Source: Clostridia bacterium (GTDB taxonomy: Bacteria; Bacillota; Clostridia; Christensenellales; Borkfalkiaceae). Taken from it: a stretch of DNA of 54,381 nt. Within the stretch, counting starts at the first letter, position 1; each line of letters begins with the position of its first letter. The position numbers and the translations under genes are program-made. The DNA lies in contig JAFTKT010000037.1 of NCBI GenBank assembly GCA_017453145.1, positions 1 to 54,381 on the forward strand, in the 5' to 3' direction. Shown here piece after piece: positions 19,880 through 40,676 of this stretch. The notes beneath the pieces were generated by a model. That model saw only the letters and a program-made list of their open reading frames with translations. It was not told the DNA's origin and did no database searches.

Positions 19880-19911
19880 TCGTTTTGTCCTCCTTTCATT
19901 TTTTGATTTTT

Positions 19912-20256: not shown

Positions 20257-20282
20257 AAAATGTATACCTCCGTTGTTTTACG

Positions 20283-20311
20283 ATAATAGTATACACCCTA
20301 AAAGTTTTCAA
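20283..20311 (-). promoter_or_regulatory. candidate sigmaA promoter for the 114-aa/81-aa gene pair
   Basis: On the minus strand: TTGAAA (20311-20306), a 17-nt spacer, then TATTAT (20288-20283). Confidence 0.45.
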
Positions 20312-21726: not shown

Positions 21727-22771
21727 AGACGTTTCCTTTCAAGACAATCGTAAAGGCGCTGCCTTTCCCAACCTCGCTTGCGACGGAAATTTCTCCGCCG
21801 AGAATATCGATAACCTTTTTCACGAGCGGCAAGCCGAGCCCGTTCCCCTCGCCCGAGTGCGAAGTGTCCCCTTGATAAAATTTCTCAAAGATATGCGCGC
21901 CCGTTTCCTTTGAAATGCCACAACCGCTATCGGACACGGTAACTACCGCCGCCCCGCCTTTCACTTTCAACGACAACCCGATTATGTCGCCCGCCTCCGT
22001 GAATTTGATTGCGTTGGATAAAAGGTTGTTCCACACAATCTCCAAAAGGCTGGGCGCGGATACGATTTGTATATCGTCCAAATCACAGTCCAAAACCAAA
22101 TTTTTGTTTTCAATCACCTCTTCAAAAGCAAGCGCCGCCTGCGCTAATTGTTCGGTCAGAGAAAACCTTTCAAATTCCGGCTTAATCTCTTGATTTTCAA
22201 GTTTATTAAGTTTCAGAATATTCGTAATCAAATCGGACAACCGCTTTGCCGCCCGCGAAAGCGTTTTCGCATACCGTTGCCGCGTTTCCTCGTCCAAACC
22301 GCTATCCTGCAACAACGCCGCATAATTTTGCAACACGGAAAGCGGCGTTTTCAGCTCGTGCGACACGTTGGCGATAAAATCGGTTTTGAGCACTTCGCTT
22401 TTCCCTAGCTCCGCCGCAAGCACGTTGATATTCTCCATAATCACGTCGTAGTGGCTATACCGCCCGTAGGGGCTTTGAATATCCAACCGCACGGAAAAAT
22501 CCCCTTTTGCTATCCGTTCCGTCGCCGTCAAAATCTTCTTCACGGGTCTGTCAATGGTTATCCTACGCCGTATGACGTCAACCACCGTACAAAGCACCGC
22601 CAAAATCGCAATCACACCGAGCATTAGCACGGCAATCAACGCTTTATCCGTCGTTCTTTGGATAATATAATCGTAAATCAGCACGGCGATTTGAATAATA
22701 AGCGCAATCGTTATGAAAAAAATAATCACGCCCGCATAAGTAAATTCGCCGCCGAGCTTGCGTTTCTTCAT
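21719..22771 (-). CDS. sensor histidine kinase with a very short external loop (intramembrane-sensing type)
   Basis: 350 aa. Two N-terminal TM helices are separated by about 8 residues (IQRTTDKA). A HAMP-like segment follows, then the H-box SHELKTPL and a HATPase region (NLLSNAIKF, DSGCGI, GNGLGL). Confidence 0.9.
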   Translation of the reverse strand: MKKRKLGGEFTYAGVIIFFITIALIIQIAVLIYDYIIQRTTDKALIAVLMLGVIAILAVLCTVVDVIRRRITIDRPVKKILTATERIAKGDFSVRLDIQSPYGRYSHYDVIMENINVLAAELGKSEVLKTDFIANVSHELKTPLSVLQNYAALLQDSGLDEETRQRYAKTLSRAAKRLSDLITNILKLNKLENQEIKPEFERFSLTEQLAQAALAFEEVIENKNLVLDCDLDDIQIVSAPSLLEIVWNNLLSNAIKFTEAGDIIGLSLKVKGGAAVVTVSDSGCGISKETGAHIFEKFYQGDTSHSGEGNGLGLPLVKKVIDILGGEISVASEVGKGSAFTIVLKGNVYA

Positions 22772-23439
22772 TTGAGCACCGCCTTATAGCCCAGCCCGTG
22801 CACGGTTACGATTTCAAACCCGTCGCAAACGGCTGTCTTTTCCCGTATTTTGACGATATACACGTCGACCGTACGCGAGGTAGCGGAGGAATCATAATCC
22901 CAAAACTCCTCCATGAGCGCAGAACGCGTGAACGTTTTTTTCGGATAGGACAAAAACTTAAAGAGCATATCGAATTCTCTGACGGTGAGGGGAATTTCCT
23001 CGCCGTTACAAATCGCGGAGCGTTCCTCCGCGTTCATGGTCAAATTTCCGACCGTGAGCATATTCGAGGCTTGAATTTTTGCTCGACGCAGCAACGCGCC
23101 GATTTTCATAAGTAACACGTCCATATCGAACGGCTTGACAATATAATCGTCTATCCCGACGTTATATCCGAGCATTTTCGAGGGCTTGTCGTCCTTTGCC
23201 GTCATAAAAATAATCGGAATATTCTTATCGCTCGCGCGCACGCTCGCGGCAAAATCAAACCCGTCGAGACGGGGCATCATAATATCGGTAAGAATCATAT
23301 CCGCTTTCCACGTTTCCAGCTTTTCGAGCGCGTCCACACCGTCCGCACAAGCCACCGCCTCGTAGCCCGCGTTCCTCAAACACGTGCATACGAAACGGTT
23401 CAAATCCTTATCGTCCTCCGCGACTAAAATTTTAATCAT
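22768..23439 (-). CDS. OmpR-family response regulator
   Basis: 223 aa. The receiver domain shows ILVAEDD...DMILTDIMMP...TAKD. The winged-helix output domain shows LTVREFDMLFKFL...VTVHGLGYK. Confidence 0.95.
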   Translation of the reverse strand: MIKILVAEDDKDLNRFVCTCLRNAGYEAVACADGVDALEKLETWKADMILTDIMMPRLDGFDFAASVRASDKNIPIIFMTAKDDKPSKMLGYNVGIDDYIVKPFDMDVLLMKIGALLRRAKIQASNMLTVGNLTMNAEERSAICNGEEIPLTVREFDMLFKFLSYPKKTFTRSALMEEFWDYDSSATSRTVDVYIVKIREKTAVCDGFEIVTVHGLGYKAVLK

Positions 23440-27758: not shown

Positions 27759-27784
27759 GTTCTTATTTCGTTCTTATTTCGTTC
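27759..27784. repeat. 11-bp tandem duplication spanning the dut stop codon
   Basis: gttcttatttc occurs twice, followed by a partial gttc. On the coding strand the final codons plus the stop (GGAACGAAATAA) are repeated. Confidence 0.8.
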
Positions 27785-28217
27785 CCGTGCTGCCGAACCC
27801 GCCCGTGCCGCGCACCGTTTCGGAGAGCTCGCTCGTCTCTTCAAATTCCGCTTTCAAGAACGGCGCAACGACAAGCTGTGCCACGCGCTCGCCCGCCGCG
27901 ACGGTCTGCGTCGTATTCGAATGATTGTGCAGGGCAACCATAATTTCTCCGCGATAATCAGCGTCGACCACCCCGACCTTGTTTGCAGGCGCAAGCCCGC
28001 GTTTCGCCGCAAGTCCGCTCCGCGCATAGACGAGCCCTGCGTACCCTTCGGGTATTTCCATCGCAAGCCCCGTGTGCACGAATTTCGTTTCAAAAGGCGC
28101 AAAGACGATTTCCCCCTCACTCGGCAACGCGTATAAATCCGCTCCTGCGGCGAATTCCGAGCCGTAAGTCGGCAAAATCGCGTCCTCTTTCAGTTTTTTA
28201 ACGGCAATTTTAGGCAT
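27774..28217 (-). CDS. dut: dUTP diphosphatase
   Basis: 147 aa counted from the ATG at 28217, which is preceded by AAGGAG. It contains AAGADLYA, ARSGLA, VGVVDADYRGE and GTGGFGSTG. Confidence 0.9.
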   Translation of the reverse strand: MPKIAVKKLKEDAILPTYGSEFAAGADLYALPSEGEIVFAPFETKFVHTGLAMEIPEGYAGLVYARSGLAAKRGLAPANKVGVVDADYRGEIMVALHNHSNTTQTVAAGERVAQLVVAPFLKAEFEETSELSETVRGTGGFGSTGTK

Positions 28218-28301
28218 AATCCACTCCTTCGCGGCGCACCCCACGCCGACCGATTTATTTTATCGATAATATTATATCAAAACTGAACGCAAAACGCAAG
28301 C

Positions 28302-28336
28302 AAAAAGCTCGGCTTTTTCCAAAGCCGAGCTTTTTA
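28302..28336. terminator. bidirectional terminator closing the phage-derived cassette
   Basis: An 11-bp stem, agctcggcttt (28306-28316) pairing with aaagccgagct (28321-28331), with an A-run before it and a T-run after. Confidence 0.8.
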
Positions 28337-28381: not shown

Positions 28382-28867
28382 TCACGCCTTTTTGCTTGCT
28401 TCCAAGAAATAATCGTAGAGCGGCGCGTACATATCCTCCAAATACACAACGGCGGTCTTGTCCGCCTTAAACGCTTCGAACCGCGCCGTCGCGTCCTGAA
28501 AATTCGTCTCGTAGTATTGTTTTACAATCGCCATACGCTCTTCGACGGTAAGCTCGTACTTCACGGTATACTTGCCGTTTTCCTCCGCGTCCTGCTTGGT
28601 CGAGAACCGCAAATAGAACAGGAGCGAATCGCGCAACGCCTCGATTTTCTGCTCGTATTCCTTTTGCAACTTCTCACAATACGCCGCCCAAGTCCCCGAC
28701 AGAAAGATGCCTCTGTCAATCAGGCGGTGTTTTTCTTTGAGCTTTGCCTCCGTGAGCGCGCGTTGCAAACGGTTCTTTTCGAGCTGCGCGCTTTTAATCT
28801 CCAAAATCTGTTCCTCTGTGAGCGCGGCAAACTGCTCGTCGGTAAACGGTATAATATCAATCGTCAA
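28382..28867 (-). CDS. phage-cassette protein, coiled-coil N-terminal region (possible tail needle/plug or accessory protein)
   Basis: It contains ...TDEQFAALTEEQILEIKSAQLEKNRLQRALTEAKLKEKHRLIDRG.... The preferred start is the TTG at 28867, 8 nt after GGAGG. The track start, the GTG at 28876, abuts the SD. It is the last gene of the cassette. Confidence 0.5.
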   Translation of the reverse strand: MTIDIIPFTDEQFAALTEEQILEIKSAQLEKNRLQRALTEAKLKEKHRLIDRGIFLSGTWAAYCEKLQKEYEQKIEALRDSLLFYLRFSTKQDAEENGKYTVKYELTVEERMAIVKQYYETNFQDATARFEAFKADKTAVVYLEDMYAPLYDYFLEASKKA

Positions 28868-28880
28868 GCCAATCACCTCC

Positions 28881-30236
28881 CTACTTCTCTTTGGCGAGCT
28901 TTTTCAGCCTCGCGCCGATTTTCCAAACCCGCGCACCGTACGCAAGCTGTATCGCCACGCGGAACTTCTCCCCGCACAGCCCAATTTTCGCCAACACCCC
29001 GTCCGAACGCAAAGCAAGCGTATAACTCTTTTCCCGCTTTCCGTTCCCGACGAACAGCGTAACCGTACCCTCGCCGCACAGCCGCAGACTATCGAGCGTC
29101 TTTTTCCCGTCCAAACCGAACCCGACGTTTTCGGCAACCACCTGCGCCAAACGGTGGGTAGGCAACGCGGCTTGGGCTTTCAGCTCATACGCAACCCCGT
29201 CTATCACGCCGACGATTTTTCCGCGAAGACAAGACACGCCCTCTATGGTAAACGAATGATACCATTCGTCCGTCTCCCCGTCGATAACTAACCCGTATAT
29301 CCCGTTATCGCGAGCTTTATAGGCATAGAACACGCGCCCGCCAAAACAGGCGTGTTCAAATACCTGCCCTGACCGTTTCACCTCTTCTTGCAAATGACAG
29401 ACTATTCTTTTTACGCCCGACTTATCCAATCGCCACAGCCCGTCTTCGGAAAAGAAATACACCTTTTCCCCGCTCGGCGCGGCACATGCGCAAGCGGAAT
29501 TTTTATAGATTTCCTTACCCGAATACGCCACGCGCTCCAAGCGGAATTCTCTCGCACTCCCTGCCGCCGTCAGTTTCCAAATCCCGAAACGACAAAACAC
29601 GAACAACGCCTGCGCCGTCGCCGTAAGCGCAACGATTTCTCCCGTTTGCGCAGGCAAAACGACTCTACCTCCCCCGTCAAGGCTTTCGGTAAACTCCCCC
29701 GTAGCAAACGGCGCGCTATACACAAGCTCATCTGCGCTCGCCGTAAAAATCCTGCCCGCAAAGGCACAAGCAACGGGCGCGCAAGCACTTTCCAACACGC
29801 GCACAAACCCGCCGTTATTATATCGGTATACGCCCGACGCACCGCAGAAATACAGGTGGTATTCCCCCTCCTCGTCCTGCGCCTCCACCGCCGCCGTTTC
29901 CCCGTCGAACGAATACGCGAGCGTAAACGTTCTGGTTTTCTCGTTGTAAAAATATAGATTTCCGTCGAACGATAAAAACGCGAACGTATCGCCGGCATAC
30001 AAAAATTGTTTCGGGTCGCCCAACCCCCAATCGTATAACACGGGATAACCGCTCTCCAACTGATATATTTCCACGCCTACGCCCATACGAATACCGCTTG
30101 CCAAATCGCAGTTTTCCGCCTCGTCAAAGACAAACGTGTCCGCCTCGTCATATTTTTCCAACAACGCGAACGCAGAATAATCCTTTTCCACCGCCTGCGT
30201 TTTCAAAAAAATCGCACGTTTAGGATAACTCAACAT
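28881..30236 (-). CDS. phage-cassette structural protein with beta-propeller-like repeats (possible nozzle/tail hub)
   Basis: 451 aa counted from the ATG at 30236, which lies in a TGATG overlap with the upstream stop, 8 nt after GGAGG. About seven recurring hydrophobic-strand-Gly-aromatic units are seen (FLSFDGNLYFYN, LYFCGASGVYRYN, VYFFSEDGLWRLD, RVFYAYKARDNGIYGL and others). Confidence 0.5.
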   Translation of the reverse strand: MLSYPKRAIFLKTQAVEKDYSAFALLEKYDEADTFVFDEAENCDLASGIRMGVGVEIYQLESGYPVLYDWGLGDPKQFLYAGDTFAFLSFDGNLYFYNEKTRTFTLAYSFDGETAAVEAQDEEGEYHLYFCGASGVYRYNNGGFVRVLESACAPVACAFAGRIFTASADELVYSAPFATGEFTESLDGGGRVVLPAQTGEIVALTATAQALFVFCRFGIWKLTAAGSAREFRLERVAYSGKEIYKNSACACAAPSGEKVYFFSEDGLWRLDKSGVKRIVCHLQEEVKRSGQVFEHACFGGRVFYAYKARDNGIYGLVIDGETDEWYHSFTIEGVSCLRGKIVGVIDGVAYELKAQAALPTHRLAQVVAENVGFGLDGKKTLDSLRLCGEGTVTLFVGNGKREKSYTLALRSDGVLAKIGLCGEKFRVAIQLAYGARVWKIGARLKKLAKEK

Positions 30237-30787
30237 CACGCCCACCTCCGCGAACGCAATCTCCGCGCGGGCTTGGCGCGGTACGCCGCCTCAATCGCGT
30301 TTTTATATTTTTTATCCCACACGGCTGCCTCCTCAAACAAACCGCTCGCCAGCGAATATTCAGCGGCAATCCCATAAGCAAACAACCGCACCGACGCCTG
30401 CAACACGAAATCGCTCTTATCCGCCAACGTTTTCGCTTTGGGCAAATACGTATACCGCACGACGATTTTCCCTGCCTGCGTTTTCAAATATTCGGGGAAC
30501 AAGGTAAACGGCAATGCATTGCCGAACTCGTCGTATACGCCGACCACCCGCGCCGCCTCCCGCGAGAACGAGGTATAGTGCACCGCACCCGTATCCGATT
30601 GCAATTCCTCTTCCGCGAGCAAGGGTAAATAATCAAGCGCGACCTCGTTTTCGACGAGATTAAAACAGCGCAACAGTTCGCTTGTTACCGCCTCGCCCTC
30701 CGTCGACGTGCCCAGCAGGTATGCGTTGACTTCCTCCGCAAGCCCCAGCTCCGTTGCCGCCGCCGTTAAAATTTCTTTCACCGTCAT
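30236..30787 (-). CDS. putative head-tail adaptor / head-completion protein
   Basis: 183 aa, immediately downstream of the capsid gene. Size and position match an adaptor or connector. RBS AGGAGG lies upstream. No motif-level identification was possible. Confidence 0.4.
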   Translation of the reverse strand: MTVKEILTAAATELGLAEEVNAYLLGTSTEGEAVTSELLRCFNLVENEVALDYLPLLAEEELQSDTGAVHYTSFSREAARVVGVYDEFGNALPFTLFPEYLKTQAGKIVVRYTYLPKAKTLADKSDFVLQASVRLFAYGIAAEYSLASGLFEEAAVWDKKYKNAIEAAYRAKPARRLRSRRWA

Positions 30788-30815
30788 AATGTAGCACCTC
30801 CTGTTTTTTTAATAA

Positions 30816-30840
30816 CAGCCGCCCGAAAAACGGGCGGCTG
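30816..30840 (-). terminator. hairpin just downstream of the major capsid gene (partial terminator candidate)
   Basis: A perfect 10-bp stem, cagccgcccg aaaaa cgggcggctg. On the minus strand it is followed by TTATTAAAAAAA, a weak U-tract. Confidence 0.45.
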
Positions 30841-30852
30841 TCTGTTTGGAAT

Positions 30853-32022
30853 TTACGCTTCGATAATCTCCGTCAACATACCCTGACCGTTGGGTTTTTC
30901 ACACATAAGCTCGGCGTATTTCACGAGCGTAGCCGTATAGACAGGCTTGCCGGGCACTTGTTTCAAAATCTTGCCGTCCTCGCCTTCCAGCCACTTCCAA
31001 TCGCAAAGCTGATGCACCTTGAAATCGTCGGTATTGAGCAAATACATCGTCCCTTCGGGGCAGAATCTGTCGGCAATCACGGGAATCCCGTTAAAGCTCA
31101 CCGCCTTAAATCCGCCCGCGCACTCCATCGTCGGCATCACGCTCGCATATTTACGGTAATACGCGGCAAGCGCACGTTTCACGCCCCAAGAGCAGACGAT
31201 AAAATTAACCTTTCCGCCCGAATTTTCCTCAATTGCGTCGATAGCTTTTTGAATTTTGCCCTCGTCGATTTCACCGACGCCCGTCTCGATATAAGGCTTC
31301 ATAAACGGCATTGCGGAACGGTCGATGCCGTACAACTCACCGCCGTCGGCAAAAATAGCGCCAAGCCCCGTAATCTCATAATCTTTCGAGCCGTGCAAAT
31401 ACACTTTCGCATCGCTCGTCATGTAATTTTCCAAACCACTGCCTTGCACGACAATACATCTGTTTTGGCGGTCGACCGACAAAACTTTCAGACCGGTTGC
31501 CACGCTGATAGGCGCGTCGTCATACGTCGTGAAATCGAGCACCATACCCTCTACAATGCCTTTGACGTCGGAAAGTTCGATAACGTTGTCGCTTACATCG
31601 TTTACCATAGCGAGCAGACCGGTACCGTCGCCGTAGAGCATACGTCCGAAATTAAACGACGCACTTTTCACAAGCGATTGCATCTCGTCGTTGAGAAGAT
31701 TTACGAACGCGCCCTCGCTATTCGATGACGCGCGGAGCGCCTTATCGGAAATCTCAATCGTGCCGTAGAGATTTTTCAAGGTAGAAGTGAAGAGCACTCT
31801 ATCCCCCGAAGAGGACGCGGGTAAATTCCCCGTTTCGCTACCTGCGGCGATACCGCCGTTCACGCCGTATTTCACGAGCTTTTTAACGTCCTTGCCTACC
31901 ACGTCGATAGACGAACGTTGAATTTGCGCAAGGAGGGGATTTGCTTTCAAATCGAGCGCCTCCGTAACCGCGTCAAGGTAAAAAGATTTCAATGCGTTAT
32001 CCGCTGTTTCAATAGTAATCAT
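30853..32022 (-). CDS. phage major capsid protein (HK97-fold type, no delta domain)
   Basis: 389 aa, directly after the scaffold gene. It contains the N-terminal ...ALKSFYLDAVTEAL..., plus ...LYGTIEISDKAL... and an aromatic/Gly-rich C-terminal half. Its position in the portal-scaffold-capsid order supports the call. Confidence 0.75.
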   Translation of the reverse strand: MITIETADNALKSFYLDAVTEALDLKANPLLAQIQRSSIDVVGKDVKKLVKYGVNGGIAAGSETGNLPASSSGDRVLFTSTLKNLYGTIEISDKALRASSNSEGAFVNLLNDEMQSLVKSASFNFGRMLYGDGTGLLAMVNDVSDNVIELSDVKGIVEGMVLDFTTYDDAPISVATGLKVLSVDRQNRCIVVQGSGLENYMTSDAKVYLHGSKDYEITGLGAIFADGGELYGIDRSAMPFMKPYIETGVGEIDEGKIQKAIDAIEENSGGKVNFIVCSWGVKRALAAYYRKYASVMPTMECAGGFKAVSFNGIPVIADRFCPEGTMYLLNTDDFKVHQLCDWKWLEGEDGKILKQVPGKPVYTATLVKYAELMCEKPNGQGMLTEIIEA

Positions 32023-32082
32023 AAATAATTTCTCTCCTTTTTAATCATGTTTTGTTTTTTTACACGCTCATTTTCATTGCCG

Positions 32083-32805
32083 TCAATTGACGTTTTGCGC
32101 CCCGTTTTTGAAGAACCGCAACGCCATACTTCCTGCCTCGTCAATGCTTTTCGCTTTTTTAGGCGGCGAGACGAGCGTACCCGCACCGCCGAGCGTCAAA
32201 GGCGCGCCCGATTTTCCGAGCGAAGAAAGGTATTCCCCGACGATTTTCAAGCGCACCCCCTCGTCGCGACAGACGAGCCCGTAGAGCTCATCTGCGGAAA
32301 GCACGTTCTCTCCGCGAGCGTCTGCGACGGACGGTTTCGCAATGTTTTGTATTTCCTCTGCCTGCGCCTCCGCACCGCTCACAAAGCCAACGTCTGCCAC
32401 GTCTATCGAGCCGTTCGAACCGTCTTGGCGGGTTTCCTGCGTTTGGGACAAAACTTGGGTTTCGGTTTGCGCGCCGACCGATTCTAGCTCGGAAACAAAC
32501 GCAGTAAAGCGCTTGTCCTCCTCCCTTTTTTGCGCGGCTCTTTTGCGGAGCTTTTCCACCCCGCCGCCTTGCGCATTCCCCTCGCTTTCCTCCAAGCCAT
32601 TGAAATTATCCGCTTTCGCTTCCAACTCTTTGAGCCGTTGACTGCGCCTTGTAAATTCCGCCTCCAACGCCTCGTATGCCCTCAAAAGGGCGTCTACGCT
32701 CCGAAACTTACCCAAATCCGTCGAAACCTTTCCCTCTGCTTTTTCTACTTCCGTAGCTCTTTCCGATTGCTGTGTTTCCACGTAAACGTTCTCCTTTTCT
32801 TCCAT
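32083..32805 (-). CDS. phage scaffolding protein
   Basis: 240 aa, acidic and helical. It contains LGKFRSVDALLRAYEALEAEFTRRSQRLKELE, a motif pattern I associate with Firmicutes phage scaffold proteins. It lies between the portal and capsid genes. Confidence 0.65.
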   Translation of the reverse strand: MEEKENVYVETQQSERATEVEKAEGKVSTDLGKFRSVDALLRAYEALEAEFTRRSQRLKELEAKADNFNGLEESEGNAQGGGVEKLRKRAAQKREEDKRFTAFVSELESVGAQTETQVLSQTQETRQDGSNGSIDVADVGFVSGAEAQAEEIQNIAKPSVADARGENVLSADELYGLVCRDEGVRLKIVGEYLSSLGKSGAPLTLGGAGTLVSPPKKAKSIDEAGSMALRFFKNGAQNVN

Positions 32806-32841
32806 AATTTATATTTCAACCTCCTTTTTAACCTTTCCTAA

Positions 32842-34710
32842 TTATTGTGCCTTGCTTGCCGTGAGCTGTTCTTTATGTCGTCTGATATGCGCAACAAACC
32901 TTGCTTTCACTTCGTCTAAATGCGCGCACTCCTTAAACTGTGCGGAGAGCAAAAACCGCGTATGCTCGGTGATATGCAGGTCGTGCTCGTCGTATTCGTC
33001 AGGCAAAACCGCCTCCGTTTTCAACAGCAAATTCTCCTCGCCTGCTTTTGCGATATGTAGCGCGGAAATATCCCTTGCGTTTTCAAAACTTCCGAACCCG
33101 AACGCCTCCAAAATCCTGTTCTTGTTCTCCACCGAAAGCTTCCCCTCGCCATCCGTGAGAATACCCGCCTCGTAGAGCTTCAAAATCGTCGCCTGTTTCT
33201 CTTCGGGCGATACGCCGTCCTCCGCCTCAAATTGCACGTCATTCGCCTCCAACTCACTCGCGTTGAAATAGTACACCTGCGTTTTCTTATTCTCGCCCGC
33301 GACCGTCAACAGCCTCGCGTTCCCTGCAAATTCACGATACAATCGCAAAATCTGTTTCCCAACCTTCTTCACCGCCCGTTCCGTCTCCTCAACGGTAACG
33401 GAAAGCCTTGAATCGTCTTGCGAAAGCAACAACTGCAACCCCGTCGCACTCGTAACCCTTGCAGGCGTCGAGCTTTGCGACAAATCGGACACACCGCTGA
33501 TTAACGCAAACTCCTTTTCGAGCCACGCCTCTTCGGCGGCGAACTCCGACGGTATATTCCCGCAATTGAGCATTTCAGGCGGTTTCGCGCCCTGACGGTA
33601 CACAAGCACCTTTCCGGGCAACAGCCCCTCTTCCGCTAGCTCGTCGGTATCCACCGCACCATCCTCCACCGTCAACACGCCCATAGACAATCGGTTCAAA
33701 AACTCGTGTTTTCTGTTCCGCACGGCATTATACGCCCTTTGCACGGGAATAAGCCTATCCACAACGCTCGCCCCGAAAAAGCAAGCGGGCAGCCGCATAC
33801 AGTCTTGCTTTACGAACGGAAAATCACGCTCGCCGCGCTCGCCGTTTTGATAGGGCAAATCCCCCGCAAACAACAGCTTGTTCCCCGCCACAATTTCCAG
33901 CCTACCGCGCGGATACGCTTTGGTCGGACGGGTATACCGTTCAATTAAAATCACGCTGTTTTCGTCCGTCGTGTTTTTAAAGGTCGTGCCGTCAAGCGGT
34001 AATTTCCCTGACGCAGGCTCGGCGAACGGGTCGACCGTCAAAGCCGCCGCAGACGTGCCTTGCACCTCCACGCCGAACCGCTCATACACGTCGTCCACCG
34101 TGATAAGCTTTGCATGGATAAGGCTTTGCACCTCTTCCAAGCTCTCCGCGTTCAAAAAATCGGGATAAATCTCAAACGCCGACACAGCGCTGATTTTCAC
34201 TTCCCCTTCATAGACGGGCTCGCCCGATTCCCTTTCCGCGACCTTTCTCCCCGCGTTCACGTCCCATGCGATTTTATAAAAGGCACTCCCGCAAATTTCC
34301 GCCCACGTCGTAACCTGTGAAACGGTCTGGGAAAACCCCGCCCTTTCCTGTGCATACGTCAACAACCCCGTCGCAAGCTTTGCGGCTTTTATATCCCCGT
34401 CCTCATCTGAAAAGGCACGCACGCGGAGCTTGGGCTGTAAGCGTTCGAGCTTGGCAAGTCTTGCCTCAATCGTAGGCGCGATATGATTAAACGCTCGCCG
34501 CGATTGCCAATAAAACCGCTTATCCTCTTCCGCAAGCCCTCCTAGCGGCGACACGTCGCAATACTGGTCGCCGCTGTAAAAATGCAAATTCAACAGCCAC
34601 CCGCTTTCTATTCTGCGCCTCGCCTCCCTGCGCTCCTCGAAATCGGCGACAATCTCCGCCGCCAACCTCTGCTCTGCTTTTTCCTTTTGGGAAAAATCCG
34701 TTTGTTCCAT
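32842..34710 (-). CDS. phage portal protein
   Basis: 622 aa, located after the terminase genes and before the scaffold gene. The size and overall alpha/beta character are typical of a portal. RBS AAGGAGGAG lies upstream. Confidence 0.75.
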   Translation of the reverse strand: MEQTDFSQKEKAEQRLAAEIVADFEERREARRRIESGWLLNLHFYSGDQYCDVSPLGGLAEEDKRFYWQSRRAFNHIAPTIEARLAKLERLQPKLRVRAFSDEDGDIKAAKLATGLLTYAQERAGFSQTVSQVTTWAEICGSAFYKIAWDVNAGRKVAERESGEPVYEGEVKISAVSAFEIYPDFLNAESLEEVQSLIHAKLITVDDVYERFGVEVQGTSAAALTVDPFAEPASGKLPLDGTTFKNTTDENSVILIERYTRPTKAYPRGRLEIVAGNKLLFAGDLPYQNGERGERDFPFVKQDCMRLPACFFGASVVDRLIPVQRAYNAVRNRKHEFLNRLSMGVLTVEDGAVDTDELAEEGLLPGKVLVYRQGAKPPEMLNCGNIPSEFAAEEAWLEKEFALISGVSDLSQSSTPARVTSATGLQLLLSQDDSRLSVTVEETERAVKKVGKQILRLYREFAGNARLLTVAGENKKTQVYYFNASELEANDVQFEAEDGVSPEEKQATILKLYEAGILTDGEGKLSVENKNRILEAFGFGSFENARDISALHIAKAGEENLLLKTEAVLPDEYDEHDLHITEHTRFLLSAQFKECAHLDEVKARFVAHIRRHKEQLTASKAQ

Positions 34711-34738
34711 AATACTCTCCTCCTTTTTTATTCCCTAT

Positions 34739-35122
34739 TTACTTTTCACTTTTCTCTGTTATTTTGCCACTTCTCTTCACCTTTTTTCTCGGTTTCGCGC
34801 GCGGTTTTCTCGCGACTTTCTTGCTTTCAACGCACACCTGCCCCTCTCCTTTCTCCGCCGAACGCAGCAAAGCAAACAGCCGTTCCTTTTCCGCGTTCAA
34901 TTCCTCGTCGCTCATTTTTTCAAGGCCAGTTAAACCGTTTTCACCGAGCAACAACTGCGCAGCTTTCAAATCGGGCGGCACGTCCTTTTTCGTCTTTTTA
35001 CGTTTCGTAAGCTTCAATTCCCCGTCCACTTCGGCATATTCTTCGGTAACTTCGGCGACCTGAAACCCAAGCGCCACCTTCAAAATCGCCTCCGACAGCC
35101 TTTCCTCCTCTTTTTCCGTCAT
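34739..35122 (-). CDS. small basic-tailed protein with small-terminase-like segment
   Basis: 127 aa. An ATGA overlap joins it to the TerL stop. The segment KLTKRKKTKKDVPPDLKAAQLLL resembles a conserved segment of small terminase subunits (from memory). The C-terminal tail is highly basic: KKVARKPRAKPRKKVKRSGK. Confidence 0.35.
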   Translation of the reverse strand: MTEKEEERLSEAILKVALGFQVAEVTEEYAEVDGELKLTKRKKTKKDVPPDLKAAQLLLGENGLTGLEKMSDEELNAEKERLFALLRSAEKGEGQVCVESKKVARKPRAKPRKKVKRSGKITEKSEK

Positions 35123-36549
35123 AGCATCCTTGCCCTCCTAACACGTTTCATCAATCGTTCCTTATCCTTTTGTATCACGCTCTTTTCCACAACGGGCGGT
35201 AGTTTTTTCGGTCGCGTCATCAAATAATACCTCATTTCATCCAGCGCATGGTCGTCCACCTTTTTCGGCGTATCGCCGCTCCCCCAAACGTACCCTTTCA
35301 GCTCTTTTATCAGCTCCACGCAGTTTTGGAAAATATACAAGTTCGGCAAACCGTTTTTGGTATTGAGATAACTTTTCACCCTCGCAATCCCCGAAAACAA
35401 ATCCTTGTCGACGTCGGGATTAACCAAAATACCCCGTTCGTAGAAAAGCTCCGCAACGCTTTTCACGCTCGCTAGCGTTCGTTGCTTTGCCGCGCTGTCA
35501 ATGAGGGCACGCACTCTGCCCTGCCCGTCCGTTTTCCAACCCAGCCTCGCGGAAATTTCCCTGATTTTCTCCGCGTGATAATCGACGTCCTTTCCCGCCG
35601 CAAAATGCTCGGCAAGCACGTACACGTTGTCGTCAAAATCAACGGCATACCAATGCGCGGACAGCGGATTATTGAGACCGGGGTCAATGGAAATTATATC
35701 CTGCCATTCTTTGGGCACGTCAAACGGCTCAATCACGTGCACCCGCTCGTCAAATTCGGGATAGACAAGCCCCTCGCCGCTCGCAAACTTCCCGTATCGC
35801 CGCGACTGCAAAGCCCCCTCGTCCAAACACGATTCTAACAAGGTAATTTCCGCAGGGTCAAGATAGGGATTATCCGCCCATTCCATAAACTCATACCAAA
35901 CTTCCGGGTCGTTTTTACGGTTCAGGTAAATCTCGTTATAGACGAACGTTAACCCTTTGAGCGGGGTCATCGTCCCAAAAATATCCCCTTTTTTATCGAA
36001 CACGCGCATGCGGCATTCCTCGTAAATATCACGCGGCGGCTCTTCGTCGAACCAAACGAAATCGAGCGACGTGCCTTGAAACTTTTCCCTGCCTTGGTCG
36101 CAACTTTTGAACCCGATAACAGACGTCCCGCCGAGCGCATTTTTCACGCGTATAAAATCGATTACGCCCTCACTCGGACAATCCTTACGCCCTGCAAGCA
36201 TGACAATCCCGTCAATCCATTCGCGTTTCAAATAATGCAAAATCTTTTTTTGCGCGACGTCCCTTTGCACCTGTGTAGACAGGGAAACCACCCACCCGCA
36301 CACGTCCTTTTTATTCTCGCGGTAAGGATGAATTCCCCGCGCAAGATAGACGCATTCCGCTGCCCCGCACTCCGTTTTCCCCGAACGGTTTCCCCCGAAC
36401 ACCCAGCGATTACGCTTTTCCGATTTATGAAAAGCGAGTTGTTTTTTATGTATTTTTTCACCCGTATTATAAGCGGCGAGGAAATCGTCCTGTTTTCTTC
36501 GCGCCTGCTCGCGTTCGATTAAAACGAGCTTTTCTACAATATCTCTCAT
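35119..36549 (-). CDS. phage terminase large subunit
   Basis: 476 aa. It contains Walker A GGNRSGKT, Walker B LDFVWFDEE, and nuclease-half acidic motifs (ISIDPG..., VDDHALDEMRY). Confidence 0.85.
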   Translation of the reverse strand: MRDIVEKLVLIEREQARRKQDDFLAAYNTGEKIHKKQLAFHKSEKRNRWVFGGNRSGKTECGAAECVYLARGIHPYRENKKDVCGWVVSLSTQVQRDVAQKKILHYLKREWIDGIVMLAGRKDCPSEGVIDFIRVKNALGGTSVIGFKSCDQGREKFQGTSLDFVWFDEEPPRDIYEECRMRVFDKKGDIFGTMTPLKGLTFVYNEIYLNRKNDPEVWYEFMEWADNPYLDPAEITLLESCLDEGALQSRRYGKFASGEGLVYPEFDERVHVIEPFDVPKEWQDIISIDPGLNNPLSAHWYAVDFDDNVYVLAEHFAAGKDVDYHAEKIREISARLGWKTDGQGRVRALIDSAAKQRTLASVKSVAELFYERGILVNPDVDKDLFSGIARVKSYLNTKNGLPNLYIFQNCVELIKELKGYVWGSGDTPKKVDDHALDEMRYYLMTRPKKLPPVVEKSVIQKDKERLMKRVRRARML

Positions 36550-36603
36550 AAATACCTCACAATCGGCAAAATTATATTCGCAAAACGCGTTATAATGAAA
36601 GCT

Positions 36604-37320
36604 ATGAAAAAGTTTATTTTATCGGTTTTATCGGCGACGCTGTCGCTGTTATTTTTCCTATCCCCGTTCTACCGTCCGCCGCAGCACGCACGCGGCGAGA
36701 CGCTTTCCCTTGTCGAGGGCTCGTTCGCCTGTATTCTCACGGACGAGGCGTTTTTCTATTCCGAGCGCGACGAAAAGCGCGGCTTATTTCTTCTCCCGAA
36801 AACGTATTTCGTGAAAGTCATAGAAATCGAGCCCACCTTTTGTAAAATCGAATACCTCTACGACGACGCGCACGTCCAAAAGCTTATCGGCTACGCCAAA
36901 ACGGACGCATTAACCCCCGTGCCTTTCGTGCCCAAACGCCCCTATCTCTACCGCCTAATCGAAGTAAGCTACACAATCGGCAACGGCGGTATACAGACGT
37001 CGGGCTTTTTAGACGAAATCCGTTTCACCTGCGCTTACTATGGCGACTACCGAGTGGGCTCGGAAACGTATTGTTATATCCTGCGTGAAAGCGAATTCGG
37101 GTACATACCCAAGCCGGCGGAGCTTGCTATCGAGCCCAACGGCGAATACGCCGAGTGGCAAGCCGCCCAAGCCGCACCGAGCGAGCCCACGCCCACGCCA
37201 AGCGAGCAAACGAGCCCCGCGCAAATCGCGATTTTAGTCGCGCTCTGTCTGCTCGTTCCCGTCCTCGCCGCGCTCATCTTGCGCCCCAACAAACCCTCCC
37301 CCTACGACTCCGATGAATAA
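36604..37320 (+). CDS. secreted, C-terminally membrane-anchored protein with SH3-like repeats
   Basis: It has a signal peptide MKKFILSVLSATLSLLFFL. Two beta-rich SH3b-like units follow, then a Pro/Thr/Ser linker (APSEPTPTPSEQTSP), a C-terminal TM helix and an acidic tail (YDSDE). The start was moved to the ATG at 36604, because the track ATG at 36595 lies inside a TATAAT box. Confidence 0.6.
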   Translation: MKKFILSVLSATLSLLFFLSPFYRPPQHARGETLSLVEGSFACILTDEAFFYSERDEKRGLFLLPKTYFVKVIEIEPTFCKIEYLYDDAHVQKLIGYAKTDALTPVPFVPKRPYLYRLIEVSYTIGNGGIQTSGFLDEIRFTCAYYGDYRVGSETYCYILRESEFGYIPKPAELAIEPNGEYAEWQAAQAAPSEPTPTPSEQTSPAQIAILVALCLLVPVLAALILRPNKPSPYDSDE

Positions 37321-37451
37321 CCGCCCCTTTTGCCCCACTGTTATTGCGAGCGAGTTTACGAGCGCGGCAATCTCTGCGGAATAACCTAATCGCCTTTTTT
37401 ATCATTCTGGAGCGAAGCGCAAACCACGTTTCGCCGTGCAAAACGTCGCTC

Positions 37452-37976
37452 TCACTCCGCGCCGAGCCACCTGCGTTCGCTTTGGGTAATTTTTCTATCC
37501 TTCCCCTCGCAGACAGCGCGGTAAATTTTCCGAAAAATATCCGTCTGGGCATACGTCTTTTCAAAGACCTCCGCCGTTAGCCCCTCTCTTTTGAAGATAG
37601 CGGCAAGCTTTTCACCCAGCCGTTTTTGAAAGCGGAAATACTGTCGTTCGCTCCAAGCGGCAATCGCACCGTTTTTCTTTTTCCGAGCGGCAAACAGCGT
37701 TTCCTTAAACCGTTTCCGTTTCCCGAAATAACGCGCCCCAACCAACGCCCTTTCCACGTCGGTCAACGTATCGAGCACCCCCTGCACCGTTGCTTTCAGC
37801 CAAAGCAACGCCTGCTTTTCACAAACCTCGCCTGCGAGGTATTCCGCAAACTCCCAAGCCGATTTATCACTGCGATAGGACAATACCGCCTTGTTTTGAA
37901 TATGTAACTGATAATCCTCCTCCACGTTTGCCAACAGCGGAAACGCATATAAAATTGTCTTCACGTAATTTTCCAA
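37452..37976 (-). CDS. sigma-70 region-4-like / ArpU-RinA-like putative late-gene transcriptional activator
   Basis: The segment LDTLTDVERALVGARYFGKRKR resembles sigma region 4.2 or phage late activators. Its position is upstream of the packaging module. The preferred start is the TTG at 37976, 8 nt after GAGG. The track start is the GTG at 37985. Confidence 0.4.
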   Translation of the reverse strand: MENYVKTILYAFPLLANVEEDYQLHIQNKAVLSYRSDKSAWEFAEYLAGEVCEKQALLWLKATVQGVLDTLTDVERALVGARYFGKRKRFKETLFAARKKKNGAIAAWSERQYFRFQKRLGEKLAAIFKREGLTAEVFEKTYAQTDIFRKIYRAVCEGKDRKITQSERRWLGAE

Positions 37977-38266
37977 ATCAAGCACCTCACTAAAAATTTT
38001 ATTTGTTTCTCGCCATTTTCTTCTTTCGTGTGATTATCCCTCCCCGAACGCCTGTCCCGTCGCTCGCACAATCATTCTCCCATAAAACCCAAAAATTGCA
38101 AGTCCCCGTATGCCAACTTTTTGGCAATTTTCCGAACATTTGTTCGCTTTTGAGAGTAGTATAACACATTAAATATGACAACTGCCTGCCTGATTTGAAA
38201 AATATTTCCAAAAATTACCAACTTTTTTCAAAAATTTTCGGACGGCAAAAAAACTCCGCCAAATCA

Positions 38267-38295
38267 TTGCTTTTTTTTCTAAAAAGTGGTATAAT
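38267..38295 (+). promoter_or_regulatory. extended -10 sigmaA promoter of the 790-aa surface protein gene (near-leaderless)
   Basis: TTGCTT at 38267-38272, a 17-nt spacer, then TGgTATAAT with TATAAT at 38290-38295. The ATG at 38304 lies 8 nt past the -10 element, and no SD is present. Confidence 0.6.
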
Positions 38296-38303
38296 AAAAT
38301 CGT

Positions 38304-40676
38304 ATGAAGAAAAAAGGGTTAGCGTTCATTTCCATATTGGCGGTTTTCTCGGCGGCGTTCACGCTCGTCGTAGTCCCTGCGCGCGCCGAAACGGCGACAA
38401 CGCCCATAGCGTCGCAACCGACGGAAACACTCGTTGCCCCCGTTTCCTACGAGCAATATCTGCCGCTTAACAACCCGACTGACGTTGCCGTGAGCGAAAA
38501 CTATTTGGCGATTGCGGACGGAAACGGCATTTATATCTACGACCGCGCCGACGGCGAATACCGTCTTTATAAACACGGCGAAGAAAACAAACAAGAGGAC
38601 AGAATTGCAAAATTACAATTCGACGAATACGAAACGCTGTATTTCCTCGACGGCTCGACGGCGACGAATTTCTATTCTTTCAACGTGGAAACGGGCGAAG
38701 AAACGCCCATTGCGCTCGCCTGCGGAACGTTCACGGTGCAAGGCGGCGAGTTGTATTTCACCAACGCGCAAGAAGATTTGTATAAAGCGAGCTTAAACGG
38801 ACAATCGCTTTCGCCCGTATCCTTACAATGGGAAAACGTATCCTCGCTCGCGTTTTTGAGCGGCGAGCTGTATTTCATTCAGTCGGACTATTATCTTATG
38901 AAAATCGACCCGACGCTCGCCCTGCCGCCCAACCCCGCCAAAGCGACGTATAAAATTTTCGAAAAACAAATCGCGCACGTCTCGGTATCAGACGGCGCGC
39001 TGTCCTGCACGAGCGCCGACGGCGAATTTTTCTCCTACGCGCTCACGCAAACGGAAACGCCCGTCTTTCAATCTTCGGCAGAGGGCTACGCGCGCCTTTG
39101 TGCGTTCGGCGAAAACGTGTATGCGGTGCAACCGAGCAAAGGCGCAATCAAACAATACTCCACCAAACAAGGCGCGTTCACGGACTATGAAATTTCCGCA
39201 AACTCCGCCTCCCGCCACCGTTTAAGCGGTGCAAAAACGACCTTTCTTGCAGGGGACAAGCTGTATATCGCAGACAACGGCAACGCCCGTATATCCGTCT
39301 ACGACACACGGGAAAACAAATTCCTTGCCCCGTTCAACGCGACCCTGCCCCCGTCCTATATCTGCGCAGATGAAAACTACCTGCTCGCGGCGACGGATAC
39401 GCAAGCCACGCTCTATTCCCTTTCGGCAGAAACCTACGGCGAACCGAGCGCGCAATTTTCCAACTTCAACGGCAAGCTCGTAGGCGTTGCGTGCGTATAC
39501 GGAAAATTCTATTTAGCCACCGACCACAACGAATGCTACGCGTTGACTTTACAAGCGGAAACGGGCGAATGGACGCGCGAATCGCATAGAAAAAGCTCCA
39601 CGCGCTATCCCAAAGCTTTGACCTCCGACGTCTACGGCAATTTGTATATTCTGTCAGGCCGCGAGGCATACCGTTTCACGGAACGCGAATTCCTTTCGGA
39701 CACGGAAGAGGGCGAAAAGGTAGGCGAGAATCTGCCGACGTCGACCACGCAAATCGCCGTCGATTACAATCAAACGCTCTATGCGCTTTCGGACAACGGG
39801 CTGTTTCTCGAAAGCACCGAGCTGTTCCGCTTGCGGGCACGCCCCGTCTACTACGCGGACGCACTCGCTACGCCCAGTCTCACCTCCTTTGCAATCGGCA
39901 TTGAAGAAAACGAAACGTATCTGCTTTGCGAGGGCAATTATTTATTGAAATCCACCGCGCTTTCTCTGCCCACCGTCAAAACGGTAGCGGTAAACGGCGC
40001 AAACGAGAATATCTTCTCCCAAGCGGCGGCGGAATTTTCGGTGGTAAAAACGCAAGAAAACACCTTGCTTGTCGAGTTTGACTTACACGCGACAAACGGC
40101 GCGGAATATTTCCCCTATTTGGGCTATTCCCGTGAAACAACCCCCAAAACCGCACTCAAAATCGGCGAAACACAAACGCATTACCTGCTCGCCGAATACG
40201 ACGCGGCAAAGGAAACCTATCGCACGTATCTCGCCCTGCAAGCGCATTGCACGCCGCTTGCGCCAAGCGAATACCGCACGGCGTATAGCGAAACGGAACA
40301 AAGAACCGGCTATATCACGAGCGCGATTGCGCTGTATAAATTCCCTTATTTAACCGAACTTTTAACGAGCGGTACGCTTGGACGCGGCGACGAAGTCGTT
40401 TTAATCGGCGAAGTGCGCGAGCTTGACCACGCCTACTACGAAATCGCGTTTACAGACGCGCAAGGCGAAACAATAACAGGTTACGTACCCCAAGCATTCG
40501 TAACCGATTTCAGCGGTATTCCCCCCGTTTCGGAAACGATTGAACGGGGCGAAACGGAAAGCGACCACGATTCCGTTTGGCGGCTTGCCTATCTTCTTTT
40601 GGGCTTTGCCGCAATCTGTATCTTGACCGACTTTCTGATATTACGAAAGAAAAAAGGAGGCGACGATTATGAGTGA
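38304..40676 (+). CDS. large secreted repeat (double beta-propeller-like) protein with C-terminal SH3-like domain and membrane anchor
   Basis: 790 aa with a signal peptide. About 12 or more recurring units are seen (YLAIADGNGIYIYD, KLYIADNGNARISVYD, NLYILSGREAYRF and others). The C-terminal segment GDEVVLIGEVRELDHAYYEIAF...GYVPQAFV is SH3b-like. It ends with a TM helix and an acidic tail (GGDDYE). Confidence 0.6.
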   Translation: MKKKGLAFISILAVFSAAFTLVVVPARAETATTPIASQPTETLVAPVSYEQYLPLNNPTDVAVSENYLAIADGNGIYIYDRADGEYRLYKHGEENKQEDRIAKLQFDEYETLYFLDGSTATNFYSFNVETGEETPIALACGTFTVQGGELYFTNAQEDLYKASLNGQSLSPVSLQWENVSSLAFLSGELYFIQSDYYLMKIDPTLALPPNPAKATYKIFEKQIAHVSVSDGALSCTSADGEFFSYALTQTETPVFQSSAEGYARLCAFGENVYAVQPSKGAIKQYSTKQGAFTDYEISANSASRHRLSGAKTTFLAGDKLYIADNGNARISVYDTRENKFLAPFNATLPPSYICADENYLLAATDTQATLYSLSAETYGEPSAQFSNFNGKLVGVACVYGKFYLATDHNECYALTLQAETGEWTRESHRKSSTRYPKALTSDVYGNLYILSGREAYRFTEREFLSDTEEGEKVGENLPTSTTQIAVDYNQTLYALSDNGLFLESTELFRLRARPVYYADALATPSLTSFAIGIEENETYLLCEGNYLLKSTALSLPTVKTVAVNGANENIFSQAAAEFSVVKTQENTLLVEFDLHATNGAEYFPYLGYSRETTPKTALKIGETQTHYLLAEYDAAKETYRTYLALQAHCTPLAPSEYRTAYSETEQRTGYITSAIALYKFPYLTELLTSGTLGRGDEVVLIGEVRELDHAYYEIAFTDAQGETITGYVPQAFVTDFSGIPPVSETIERGETESDHDSVWRLAYLLLGFAAICILTDFLILRKKKGGDDYE

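Follow-up and report, generated by a model that had tools for sequence, protein, structure and literature searches.

A vertically inherited packaging cassette derived from a short-tailed phage is a candidate gene transfer agent under predicted LexA control in gut Clostridia

What keeps a compact run of intact phage head genes in place among the housekeeping genes of a bacterial chromosome? The question is raised by a stretch of 54,381 nt (the window) on the forward strand of contig JAFTKT010000037.1 (GCA_017453145.1), from a Clostridia bacterium of the Borkfalkiaceae, in which nine tightly packed minus-strand open reading frames (ORFs) between positions 28382 and 37985 had been described, from the sequence alone, as a phage particle cassette. 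Three explanations were put forward in that original prediction: a domesticated particle resembling a gene transfer agent (GTA), a capsid-forming satellite, and an unusually well-preserved prophage remnant. The first fits best of the three, as gene order is fixed in 80 genomes, the ORFs are intact and under purifying selection, their divergence follows that of the host, and control by the host repressor LexA is predicted. On balance, the locus is probably what is left of a short-tailed (P22-like) temperate phage, domesticated and passed on vertically, and acting as a host-controlled factory for GTA-type particles in a clade of gut Clostridia.

Relatives of the cassette were collected by scanning one genome per GTDB species, which gave up to 430 matching stretches; of these the best 80 were fetched, each from a different species-level genome (individual loci carry L-numbers, such as L010 or L024). 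These genomes include Ca. Scatosoma, Ca. Borkfalkia, Christensenellaceae, Christensenella and further Clostridia metagenome-assembled genomes (MAGs) from the guts of ruminants, chickens, humans and other hosts. Gene families were assigned with Pfam and PHROG (phrog_n) profiles, folds by comparing AlphaFold2 (AF2) models with the PDB and BFVD using Foldseek, and ratios of non-synonymous to synonymous substitution (dN/dS) by the Nei-Gojobori method, with pairs of unsaturated dS among those covered. The labels g164, g454, g183, g240, g127, s177, m241 and p790 give protein length in amino acids (aa).

Gene order and orientation are identical in 80 of the 80 fetched loci: p790 where it is joined, s177, m241 on the opposite strand, then TerL (large terminase), g127, portal, g240, capsid, g183, g454 and g164, usually followed by dut-trmB(-rex-adhE) in the closer genomes. 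All nine minus-strand ORFs are present at the coordinates first assigned to them, and the details of packing noted with them were recovered: an ATGA overlap at 35119–35122 in which the TerL stop meets the g127 start, a TGATG junction at 30234–30238 between g183 and g454, GGAGG before both, and the strong terminator at the far end. Two aspects of the earlier description required revision. The block is not wholly co-oriented, as the plus-strand gene m241 lies inside it, and its boundaries had been drawn too narrowly, leaving out m241 and a LexA box and treating the 790-aa surface protein as a mere neighbour. The conserved unit consists of 11 genes over ~12.3 kb (28382–40676), taking in m241, s177 and p790 (Table 1), and its structural operon runs from TerL to g164, eight genes with strong ribosome-binding sites (RBSs) and one terminator. 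Even in the most distant low-GC relatives, with capsid proteins 48–58% identical and different outer flanks, p790, s177 and m241 remain attached to TerL.

A comparison of synteny and dN/dS across related genomes had been proposed as a check on the origin of the cassette, and alongside the fixed gene order it returned dN/dS values far below 1. These were 0.03–0.13 for TerL, 0.04–0.13 for the portal, 0.04–0.18 for the capsid protein, 0.07–0.20 for g183, 0.03–0.20 for g164, 0.08–0.39 for g240, 0.17–0.50 for g454 (the fastest-evolving cassette gene) and 0.07–0.30 for m241, compared to 0.03–0.08 for the housekeeping genes dut and trmB. In most pairs dS is ~1 or more (at or near saturation), yet the proteins are 56–87% identical and full-length across the 80 species. 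ORFs are intact and of uniform length, and no truncated TerL, portal or capsid gene was found away from contig ends. Distances based on TerL, portal and capsid protein correlate with those based on trmB and dut (Mantel r = 0.64; 0 of 2000 permutations as high), which fits long vertical inheritance with some recombination. The low dN/dS, the intact ORFs and the housekeeping-like divergence exclude a decaying remnant; the structural genes are phage-derived, vertically inherited and under purifying selection, as are those of GTAs.

Conserved regulatory DNA upstream of s177, the predicted master switch, points to the host. A perfect LexA box lies inside the 318-bp intergenic region between s177 and p790 and is the sole perfect match in the window. 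It is found 11 nt downstream of an extended -10 element directed toward s177 (TGnTATACT, minus strand, 38158–38166; conserved as TGnTATAAT or TATACT), and a second conserved promoter toward s177, P2, follows ~45 nt later. Perfect boxes occur upstream of s177 in 33 of 58 loci, nearly all with the spacer AAAT (s177 strand), and boxes with one mismatch and an AAAT or ATAT spacer in a further 11, for a total of 44/58. In the 53 loci where BLAST detected s177, 1.0 Mb of locus DNA contains 34 perfect boxes, of which 28 fall between -450 and +150 bp relative to the s177 ORF start, compared to a chance expectation of ~1 per Mb. In three loci (L011, L012 and L075) p790 has been displaced by a two-component system and the LexA box remains beside s177; in distant low-GC relatives no LexA box was found upstream of s177. 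LexA cleavage is predicted to lift repression of the cassette directly, s177 acting as the relay, and the conserved predicted operator at the s177 promoter would place particle production under a host regulator, as is characteristic of GTAs.

The two-component system of the window (response regulator and histidine kinase, 21719–23439) adjoins adhE, and in L011, L012, L015, L021 and L075 it stands between p790, or its former site, and s177, a local rearrangement that parts p790 from the cassette.

The assignment of s177 as a regulator resembling sigma region 4 holds at the family level through its orthologues. Of 35 orthologues, 18 match phrog_36 (best, 1.9e-6), 13 match phrog_248 (transcriptional activator) and four match phrog_351 (RNA polymerase sigma factor), though none has a Pfam match. 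The best hit of the s177 profile in the PDB is sigma F region 4 at a non-significant E-value (0.13), and its AF2 model (predicted local distance difference test [pLDDT], 81.8) has no PDB fold match by Foldseek. Matches of the model in BFVD are weak (E, 0.06–1) and consistently small phage proteins, named as extracytoplasmic function (ECF) sigma factor, sigma-70 region 4 or transcriptional activator. Because of the 35-orthologue PHROG scan, placement of the family among sigma-like phage late-gene activators is supported. A minus-strand hairpin of ~21 bp lies directly after the s177 stop (37321–37451; z-score of -2.45 over the whole folded 146-nt stretch). This convergent gap between s177 and m241 has a stable hairpin with an A-run, no U-tract and no canonical terminator in either direction, and the hairpin could modulate read-through from s177, antisense to m241, toward TerL.

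Table 1. Features of the 11-gene unit and its regulatory DNA, with window positions and the basis of each assignment.
Feature	Coordinates	Strand	Assignment	Basis
Terminator	28301..28336	.	Bidirectional intrinsic terminator	16-bp stem, 6 GC pairs, T-runs on both strands; ends operon before dut promoter
g164	28382..28876	-	Candidate tail plug/needle; last operon gene	Position after nozzle only
g454	28881..30245	-	Podovirus-type tail nozzle/hub (P22 gp10 / T7 gp12 class), by model; likely start ATG 30236	AF2 + Foldseek
g183	30236..30787	-	Candidate head-to-tail adaptor	Position between capsid gene and nozzle only
Capsid	30853..32022	-	Major capsid protein, HK97-type, 389 aa	phrog_14242 8e-47; weak SU10_MCP match
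g240	32083..32805	-	Candidate scaffold	Acidic composition; position between portal and capsid genes
Portal	32842..34710	-	Portal, P22/SU10 type, 622 aa	PF16510 (P22_portal) 3e-19; PF23899 2e-11; phrog_156 1e-42
g127	34739..35122	-	TerS-derived protein (small terminase), putative	Central TerS-profile match; no N-terminal helix-turn-helix region; Lys/Arg-rich tail
TerL	35119..36549	-	Large terminase (ATPase + nuclease); first operon gene	Terminase_6N + 6C; phrog_2 2.7e-31
TerL/m241 divergent region	36550..36603	.	~45-55 bp with conserved TATAAT and TTTTG	55 upstream regions aligned
m241	36595..37320	+	Membrane protein between TerL and s177; conserved ATG 36604	Signal peptide; C-terminal transmembrane anchor
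s177	37452..37985	-	Phage-type late transcriptional activator (sigma-like); predicted master switch	PHROG matches of orthologues
P2	38074..38101	-	Promoter, sigma-A type, toward s177	TTGCAA, 16-17 nt spacer, [C/G]A[T/G]AAT; 33-locus alignment
LexA box	38133..38146	.	LexA (Cheo/SOS) box, perfect, Firmicute type	CGAACATTTGTTCG; consensus CGAACN4GTTCG
p790	38304..40676	+	Surface protein, 790 aa	Signal peptide, two beta-propellers, SH3-like C-terminal region (by eye), transmembrane anchor

The operon encodes a recognizable packaging and head module, and the terminase, portal and capsid genes named from the sequence alone were all confirmed by profile (Table 1). In TerL, the Walker A (GGNR[ST]GKT) and Walker B (D[FY]VWFDEE) motifs, together with coupling and nuclease motifs (TMTP, SIDPG and DDHxxDxxRY), are invariant or nearly so among 66 orthologues. 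The window copy of g127 has a weak match to phrog_309 (E, 0.001), aligned to model columns 197–242 of 319. Among its 34 orthologues, 24 match phrog_309 (best, 8.6e-9), bearing out the earlier label of a small-terminase-like protein, and 12 match phrog_23444, with a conserved motif, KALGY..E..EEY...K.K..K.vPPDlkA. The protein looks like a TerS core that has shed the N-terminal DNA-recognition domain. Between the portal and capsid genes, g240 is present in 75 loci with variable length; its place and acidity fit the scaffold role originally given to it, and a profile match is lacking. There is no prohead protease gene in the cassette. The capsid protein is 383–401 aa in 80 of 80 loci, and its homologues are numerous (>6,500 clusters at 90% identity; 450 clusters at 50% identity with E <1e-30), with many located on 100–450 kb contigs labelled as Clostridia MAGs. 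Among 30 cluster representatives, none came from Faecalibacterium, and only 'Clostridia bacterium', Ca. Coproplasma and Maliibacterium were represented.

Downstream of the capsid gene are three genes initially described as structural-looking, a designation that is upheld by modelled fold for g454, with g183 and g164 being candidates by position. By sequence, g454 has only a weak 'tail appendage' match, and its profile has no significant match among PDB sequences. Its AF2 model (pLDDT, 87.7; predicted template modelling [pTM] score, 0.82) is most similar to the tail of phage Pa223 (9nwi_Y; E, 1.5e-15; template modelling [TM] score, 0.67), with further fold matches to GP4, Pan3, VP1, Sf6, the P22 gp1:gp4:gp5:gp10:gp9 complex (8u10; E, 1.9e-11) and T7 gp12. 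These matches run the whole length of the protein (E, 1.5e-15 to 1e-9; TM score, ≤0.67), and on the strength of the model g454 is a podovirus tail nozzle, adjoining a gene set with a P22-type portal. In most loci g183 encodes 181–205 aa, and g164 is present in 59 loci (156–215 aa); neither has a Pfam, PHROG (orthologues included) or PDB-sequence profile match. The order and sizes of the capsid protein, g183 (~180 aa), g454 (~450–470 aa) and the small last protein g164 mirror those of P22 gp5, gp4, gp10 and gp26, which makes g183 and g164 positional counterparts of gp4 and gp26. Low-GC relatives and Maliibacterium have an additional ORF of 125–139 aa that separates the capsid gene from the g183 homologue (L085, 11225–11614; L087, 9466–9885; L093, 11247–11624; L096, 11509–11919); it matches phrog_17018 in Maliibacterium and is lacking in the lineage of the window.

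Co-variation of the tail proteins was assessed as the residual divergence after removing the TerL/portal/capsid distance, using 17 loci with imperfect phylogenetic control. The strongest residual correlation was between g183 and g454 (r = 0.61); g164 co-varies with g454 and g183, and the tail proteins as a set have mutual values of 0.38–0.61. The surface protein p790 also co-varies with g454 (r = 0.49) and g183 (r = 0.54), a hint of functional coupling to nozzle and adaptor, and s177 does not co-vary with the tail proteins.

The two membrane proteins are inherited together with the phage-derived genes. In every locus reaching that far, distant low-GC relatives included, m241 is kept between s177 and TerL, and it has no Pfam, PHROG or PDB match. 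In nearly all loci a TATAAT on the m241 strand precedes the m241 ATG by ~7 nt (36591–36606), leaving no RBS, and because of this spacing to a conserved start m241 may be translated from a leaderless mRNA. On the TerL strand, a TTTTG element ~20 nt upstream of the TerL ATG is conserved (CAAAA at the m241 -35 position). In most loci and in distant relatives p790 is joined to the cassette. Its profile matches a PknD/NHL-type 'Pizza' propeller (2.7e-13) and a PQQ-like propeller (7e-12) in the PDB, with weak matches to DUF5050 and NHL. It is best described as a conserved accessory gene of the unit, and a role as receptor or in egress is speculative.

The surroundings of the unit are ordinary chromosome. 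On the dut side are adhE, rex, trmB and dut, and on the other mgtE, an M18 aminopeptidase gene and sufBD, with thyA, pgk, tpi, gpmI, RNase R and smpB farther out. As the original prediction held, GC content is flat over cassette and flanks (~0.51), and the window contains no tRNA and no att-like direct repeats beyond short ones at chance level; no Rfam family was found between 26 and 43 kb. Elsewhere in the window none of the profiled ORFs has a phage-related match, most belonging to housekeeping or ordinary cellular families. Integrase, replication and repressor genes are absent from the cassette and the window, and integrase and replication genes from the examined flanks of relatives. The absence of integration, replication and lysis genes from the window was predicted correctly, as was the conclusion that this is not a self-sufficient phage. 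The lack of receptor-binding genes, also predicted, applies to classical fibres, though a tail nozzle is present. The cassette is devoid of integration, excision and replication functions of its own, a property shared with GTAs.

Directly past the cassette terminator is a housekeeping dUTPase gene, dut (27774–28280), with its own TATAAT. It adjoins the cassette in ~30 other genomes and is contained in 33 of the 80 loci. Phage Dut proteins are satellite inducers in staphylococci; the adjacency here looks like conserved chromosomal synteny. In three loci, insertions of 3.5–4.9 kb separate g164 from dut (L010, 13883–17255; L019, 13780–16986; L031, 6333–10400). Judged by N-terminal sequences and not by profiling, the first contains an ECF-sigma-like gene, next to it one for a 428-aa protein (possibly an anti-sigma factor), and a secreted protein, the second unrelated genes, and the third a 1355-aa surface-protein-like gene, and none has a phage, tail or lysis look. 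Elsewhere in the window, minus-strand ORFs of 339 aa (17239–18258), 225 aa (19634–20311) and 312 aa (20788–21726) have no Pfam match; the last also lacks an NCBIfam match and follows a histidine kinase in L095 as well.

Among phages, relatives are distant. The closest GenBank phages are actinobacterial siphoviruses with capsid-protein identities of 23–30%, and IMG/VR holds only 14 distant relatives (47–60% identity), mostly on short contigs with the same architecture. One locus (L094, 11406–19467) has short unrelated ORFs followed by a defence island (two Dcm-type methylases, an AAA_5 ATPase and McrBC) in place of g183, g454 and g164, with no tail genes thereafter, and could be either a copy in decay or a hotspot for defence genes. 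The closed genome of the cultured Maliibacterium massiliense (LR026983.1, 2215459–2236634; L096) carries a distant relative whose setting is of phage type, in the order activator (phrog_36/248), full TerS (phrog_4102), TerL, portal, capsid, genes of 136, 189 and 477 aa, an 807-aa tail protein (phrog_21973) and more large genes. It shares with the cassette TerL (57% identical), portal (37%) and capsid protein (39%), the gene order from the capsid gene onward (the 477-aa gene standing where the nozzle gene would be) and, upstream of the packaging genes, an activator that matches the same PHROGs. Unlike the cassette, it has a complete TerS before TerL and the 807-aa tail protein, and no m241- or p790-like genes. 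When the s177 and g127 profiles were aligned by hhalign to the activator and TerS of Maliibacterium, only short motif-level matches resulted. Judging from gene content, the Maliibacterium locus is likely a real podovirus prophage in the undomesticated state, relative to which the cassette has likely shed the complete TerS, the distal tail genes and all else. Maliibacterium may therefore provide both an experimental handle and an outgroup for domestication, making it possible to compare a series from the Maliibacterium phage-type region through the low-GC relatives to the 11-gene unit.

Taken together, a sequence of events can be proposed for a host-controlled particle factory. Host LexA would occupy the SOS box overlapping the start region of the s177 promoter, and DNA damage, by cleaving LexA, would turn s177 on; s177 would in turn activate the eight-gene operon from TerL to g164. 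The putative scaffold and capsid protein would then assemble on the P22-type portal with no protease gene involved, and TerL, with a TerS-like protein presumably blind to DNA sequence, would fill the heads with available chromosomal DNA by a headful mechanism. The candidate adaptor g183, the nozzle g454 and the candidate plug g164 would seal the portal, giving a stub-tailed particle without fibres. Release and adsorption are not encoded in the operon, and might be supplied by genes elsewhere, as in the second locus of FpGTA and in RcGTA (both described below), or by m241 and p790.

By gene content, FpGTA of Faecalibacterium prausnitzii (Nat Commun 2026) comes closest among described systems. 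It is a podovirus-like GTA shown experimentally through particles, proteomics and packaged DNA, with capsids of ~40 nm containing 8.4–8.9 kb of random host DNA (PMC12946183). The capsid and portal of FpGTA I are RCH50849.1 and RCH50851.1, and a second locus carries baseplate, fibre, receptor-binding protein, holin and endolysin genes (PMC12946183). Based on this description, both systems are chromosomal operons of ~9.6–10.5 kb and ~10 ORFs in gut Clostridia lineages, encoding TerL, a TerS with no recognizable DNA-binding domain, portal, scaffold, capsid and short-tailed-phage proteins, and both lack replication and integration genes; FpGTA is near-universal in its genus. They differ in that TerS lies upstream of TerL in the FpGTA description and the TerS-like gene follows TerL here, in the opposite-strand membrane protein gene that separates the regulator from TerL here, and in the second fibre/lysis locus, for which no counterpart was found in the window or the examined flanks. 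The available description of FpGTA mentions no LexA box, late activator or pair of membrane proteins. It does bear on the packaging capacity: a head made of a portal and capsid protein of this size had been expected to hold far more DNA than the cassette's length, an argument that is unsound, as T=3 GTA heads (RcGTA; FpGTA at ~40 nm and 8.5 kb) use capsid and portal proteins of similar length (PMC12946183).

Compared to the P22 module (gp3/gp2/gp1/gp8/gp5/gp4/gp10/gp26), the cassette has a P22-type portal, a scaffold candidate, no protease and a nozzle of predicted gp10 fold. It lacks ejection proteins and a tailspike, its TerS-like gene is truncated and placed after TerL, and no similarity to gp4 or gp26 could be detected for g183 or g164. 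The alphaproteobacterial RcGTA-type agents have a siphovirus-like build (tape measure, long tail) and are under the control of CtrA, GafA and quorum sensing. The cassette resembles them as a vertically inherited head-tail cluster under purifying selection; RcGTA-type agents also have a TerS without DNA specificity, production under host regulators and accessory loci elsewhere in the genome. Unlike RcGTA, the cassette is podovirus-like, with apparent direct LexA control through a phage-type activator, and no sequence relationship between the two was seen. PBSX of Bacillus subtilis is a defective, myovirus-like killer particle of ~28 kb that has a contractile tail and encodes lysis functions of its own; a small sigma-like protein, Xpf, encoded upstream of the terminase genes, switches on its late operon, and induction proceeds through the Xre repressor. 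Both are phage-like elements of Gram-positive bacteria under SOS control (predicted for the cassette) with a sigma-like activator upstream of the terminase, though here the LexA box sits on the activator gene in place of the Xre route and there is no contractile tail.

Several points weigh against the interpretation of the locus as a GTA-type particle factory. The cassette is known from its genes alone, whereas particles and packaged DNA have been demonstrated for FpGTA, which it resembles in gene content. No holin, endolysin, fibre or receptor-binding gene turned up, either in the 54-kb window or in those flanks of relatives that were examined. The window copy of s177 falls below threshold in every profile search (Pfam, PHROG), and neither a promoter for the TerL operon nor its dependence on s177 was identified. 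Ordinary prophages, and killer particles such as PBSX, are typically under SOS control as well. A search of the PDB with the capsid-protein profile returned no informative capsid match and with it no hint of T-number or capacity, and g240, g183 and g164 all lack a profile match (Pfam, PHROG). The Mantel correlation, though well beyond the permutations, is only moderate. In the close pair L024/L027, dS is 0.02–0.10 for TerL, portal, g240, capsid, g183, g454 and g164, compared to 0.30 for g127 and 0.38–0.56 for m241, s177 and p790, a pattern suggesting that recombination broke at or close to the TerL/m241 junction and that the structural block has to some extent been exchanged horizontally.

Of the rival explanations, the one that survives best is that of a domesticated capsid that does not deliver DNA, its particles being made after DNA damage and serving instead for altruistic lysis with DNA release, for PBSX-like competition, or as an anti-phage decoy or abortive system whose terminase, portal and capsid set hijacks or chops DNA while a phage infects. 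This would account for the want of fibre, receptor-binding and lysis genes nearby, and SOS control suits stress and defence responses as well. PBSX, which packages random host DNA without transfer, demonstrates that a packaging element need not transfer DNA (PMC12946183). The strong purifying selection on packaging motor, portal and nozzle is hard to explain under this scenario unless closed, DNA-filled particles matter, and the cassette has neither a contractile tail nor any other killing device. The Dcm and McrBC island beside one distant relative would favour a defensive function, though it is confined to that single distant locus. Overall, a capsid without delivery is considered unlikely, albeit the most serious of the competitors.

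A capsid-forming satellite, packaging itself and relying on a helper for tails, replication and lysis, is very improbable. Capsid-forming phage-inducible chromosomal islands (cf-PICIs) carry their own terminase, portal and capsid genes, together with an integrase, att sites, replication genes and a helper-responsive repressor, and are patchily distributed, self-packaging elements. The cassette resembles them as a compact, island-sized head module with terminase, portal and capsid but without tail fibres or lysis genes. It has none of their mobility features (integrase, att repeats, tRNA target, replication module, repressor) and encodes its own nozzle, and the predicted control is by host LexA and not by a helper-sensing repressor. 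It occupies the same site in the same order in all 80 fetched loci with no presence/absence polymorphism seen, and its divergence follows that of the host. The satellite candidate was rejected on the fixed chromosomal site and the lack of integrase, att sites, replication genes and polymorphism. Least credible of all is an inert remnant awaiting decay. It would explain why the phage gene set is incomplete and shows no obvious genes for release or adsorption, and was rejected as the cassette is under purifying selection no weaker than that on dut and trmB over deep divergence (dS near saturation, a value that excludes recent horizontal copies, yet full-length proteins), with catalytic motifs invariant and regulatory DNA conserved.

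Returning to the GTA-like interpretation, a podovirus-like gut GTA has already been published, and the present locus would add a clade-wide distribution, a direct switch from LexA to activator, and two co-inherited surface proteins. Outside the Alphaproteobacteria only a handful of GTAs have known gene clusters, with FpGTA, in 2026, the first from the gut and the first podovirus-like one (PMC12946183). The same source reports GTA-like packaging of random 4–7 kb fragments in virus-like particles from human faeces for Christensenellaceae MAGs, with no gene cluster assigned and fragment peaks at 4.1 and 7.1 kb (HGM11616) and 6.3 kb (QANA01), in MAGs that are not shown to carry the cassette (PMC12946183). 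A bolder extension, and one that should be regarded as doubtful, is that the locus is this missing Christensenellaceae cluster and that a large clade of gut Clostridia carries it: an SOS-triggered, fibre-less, podovirus-derived GTA with its own cell-surface partner, p790 (perhaps also m241), which co-evolves with adaptor and nozzle and serves as a docking receptor on kin or as an egress platform, such that DNA damage, including that from antibiotics, drives kin-restricted exchange of chromosomal DNA. The cassette is a concrete candidate for a further GTA, clade-wide and strongly selected, with a testable switch leading from LexA box to late activator to packaging operon. If this is correct, m241 and p790 might reveal how a fibre-less particle exits or finds cells, and DNA-damaging drugs would trigger the mobilization of chromosomal DNA in an abundant and largely uncultured gut lineage.

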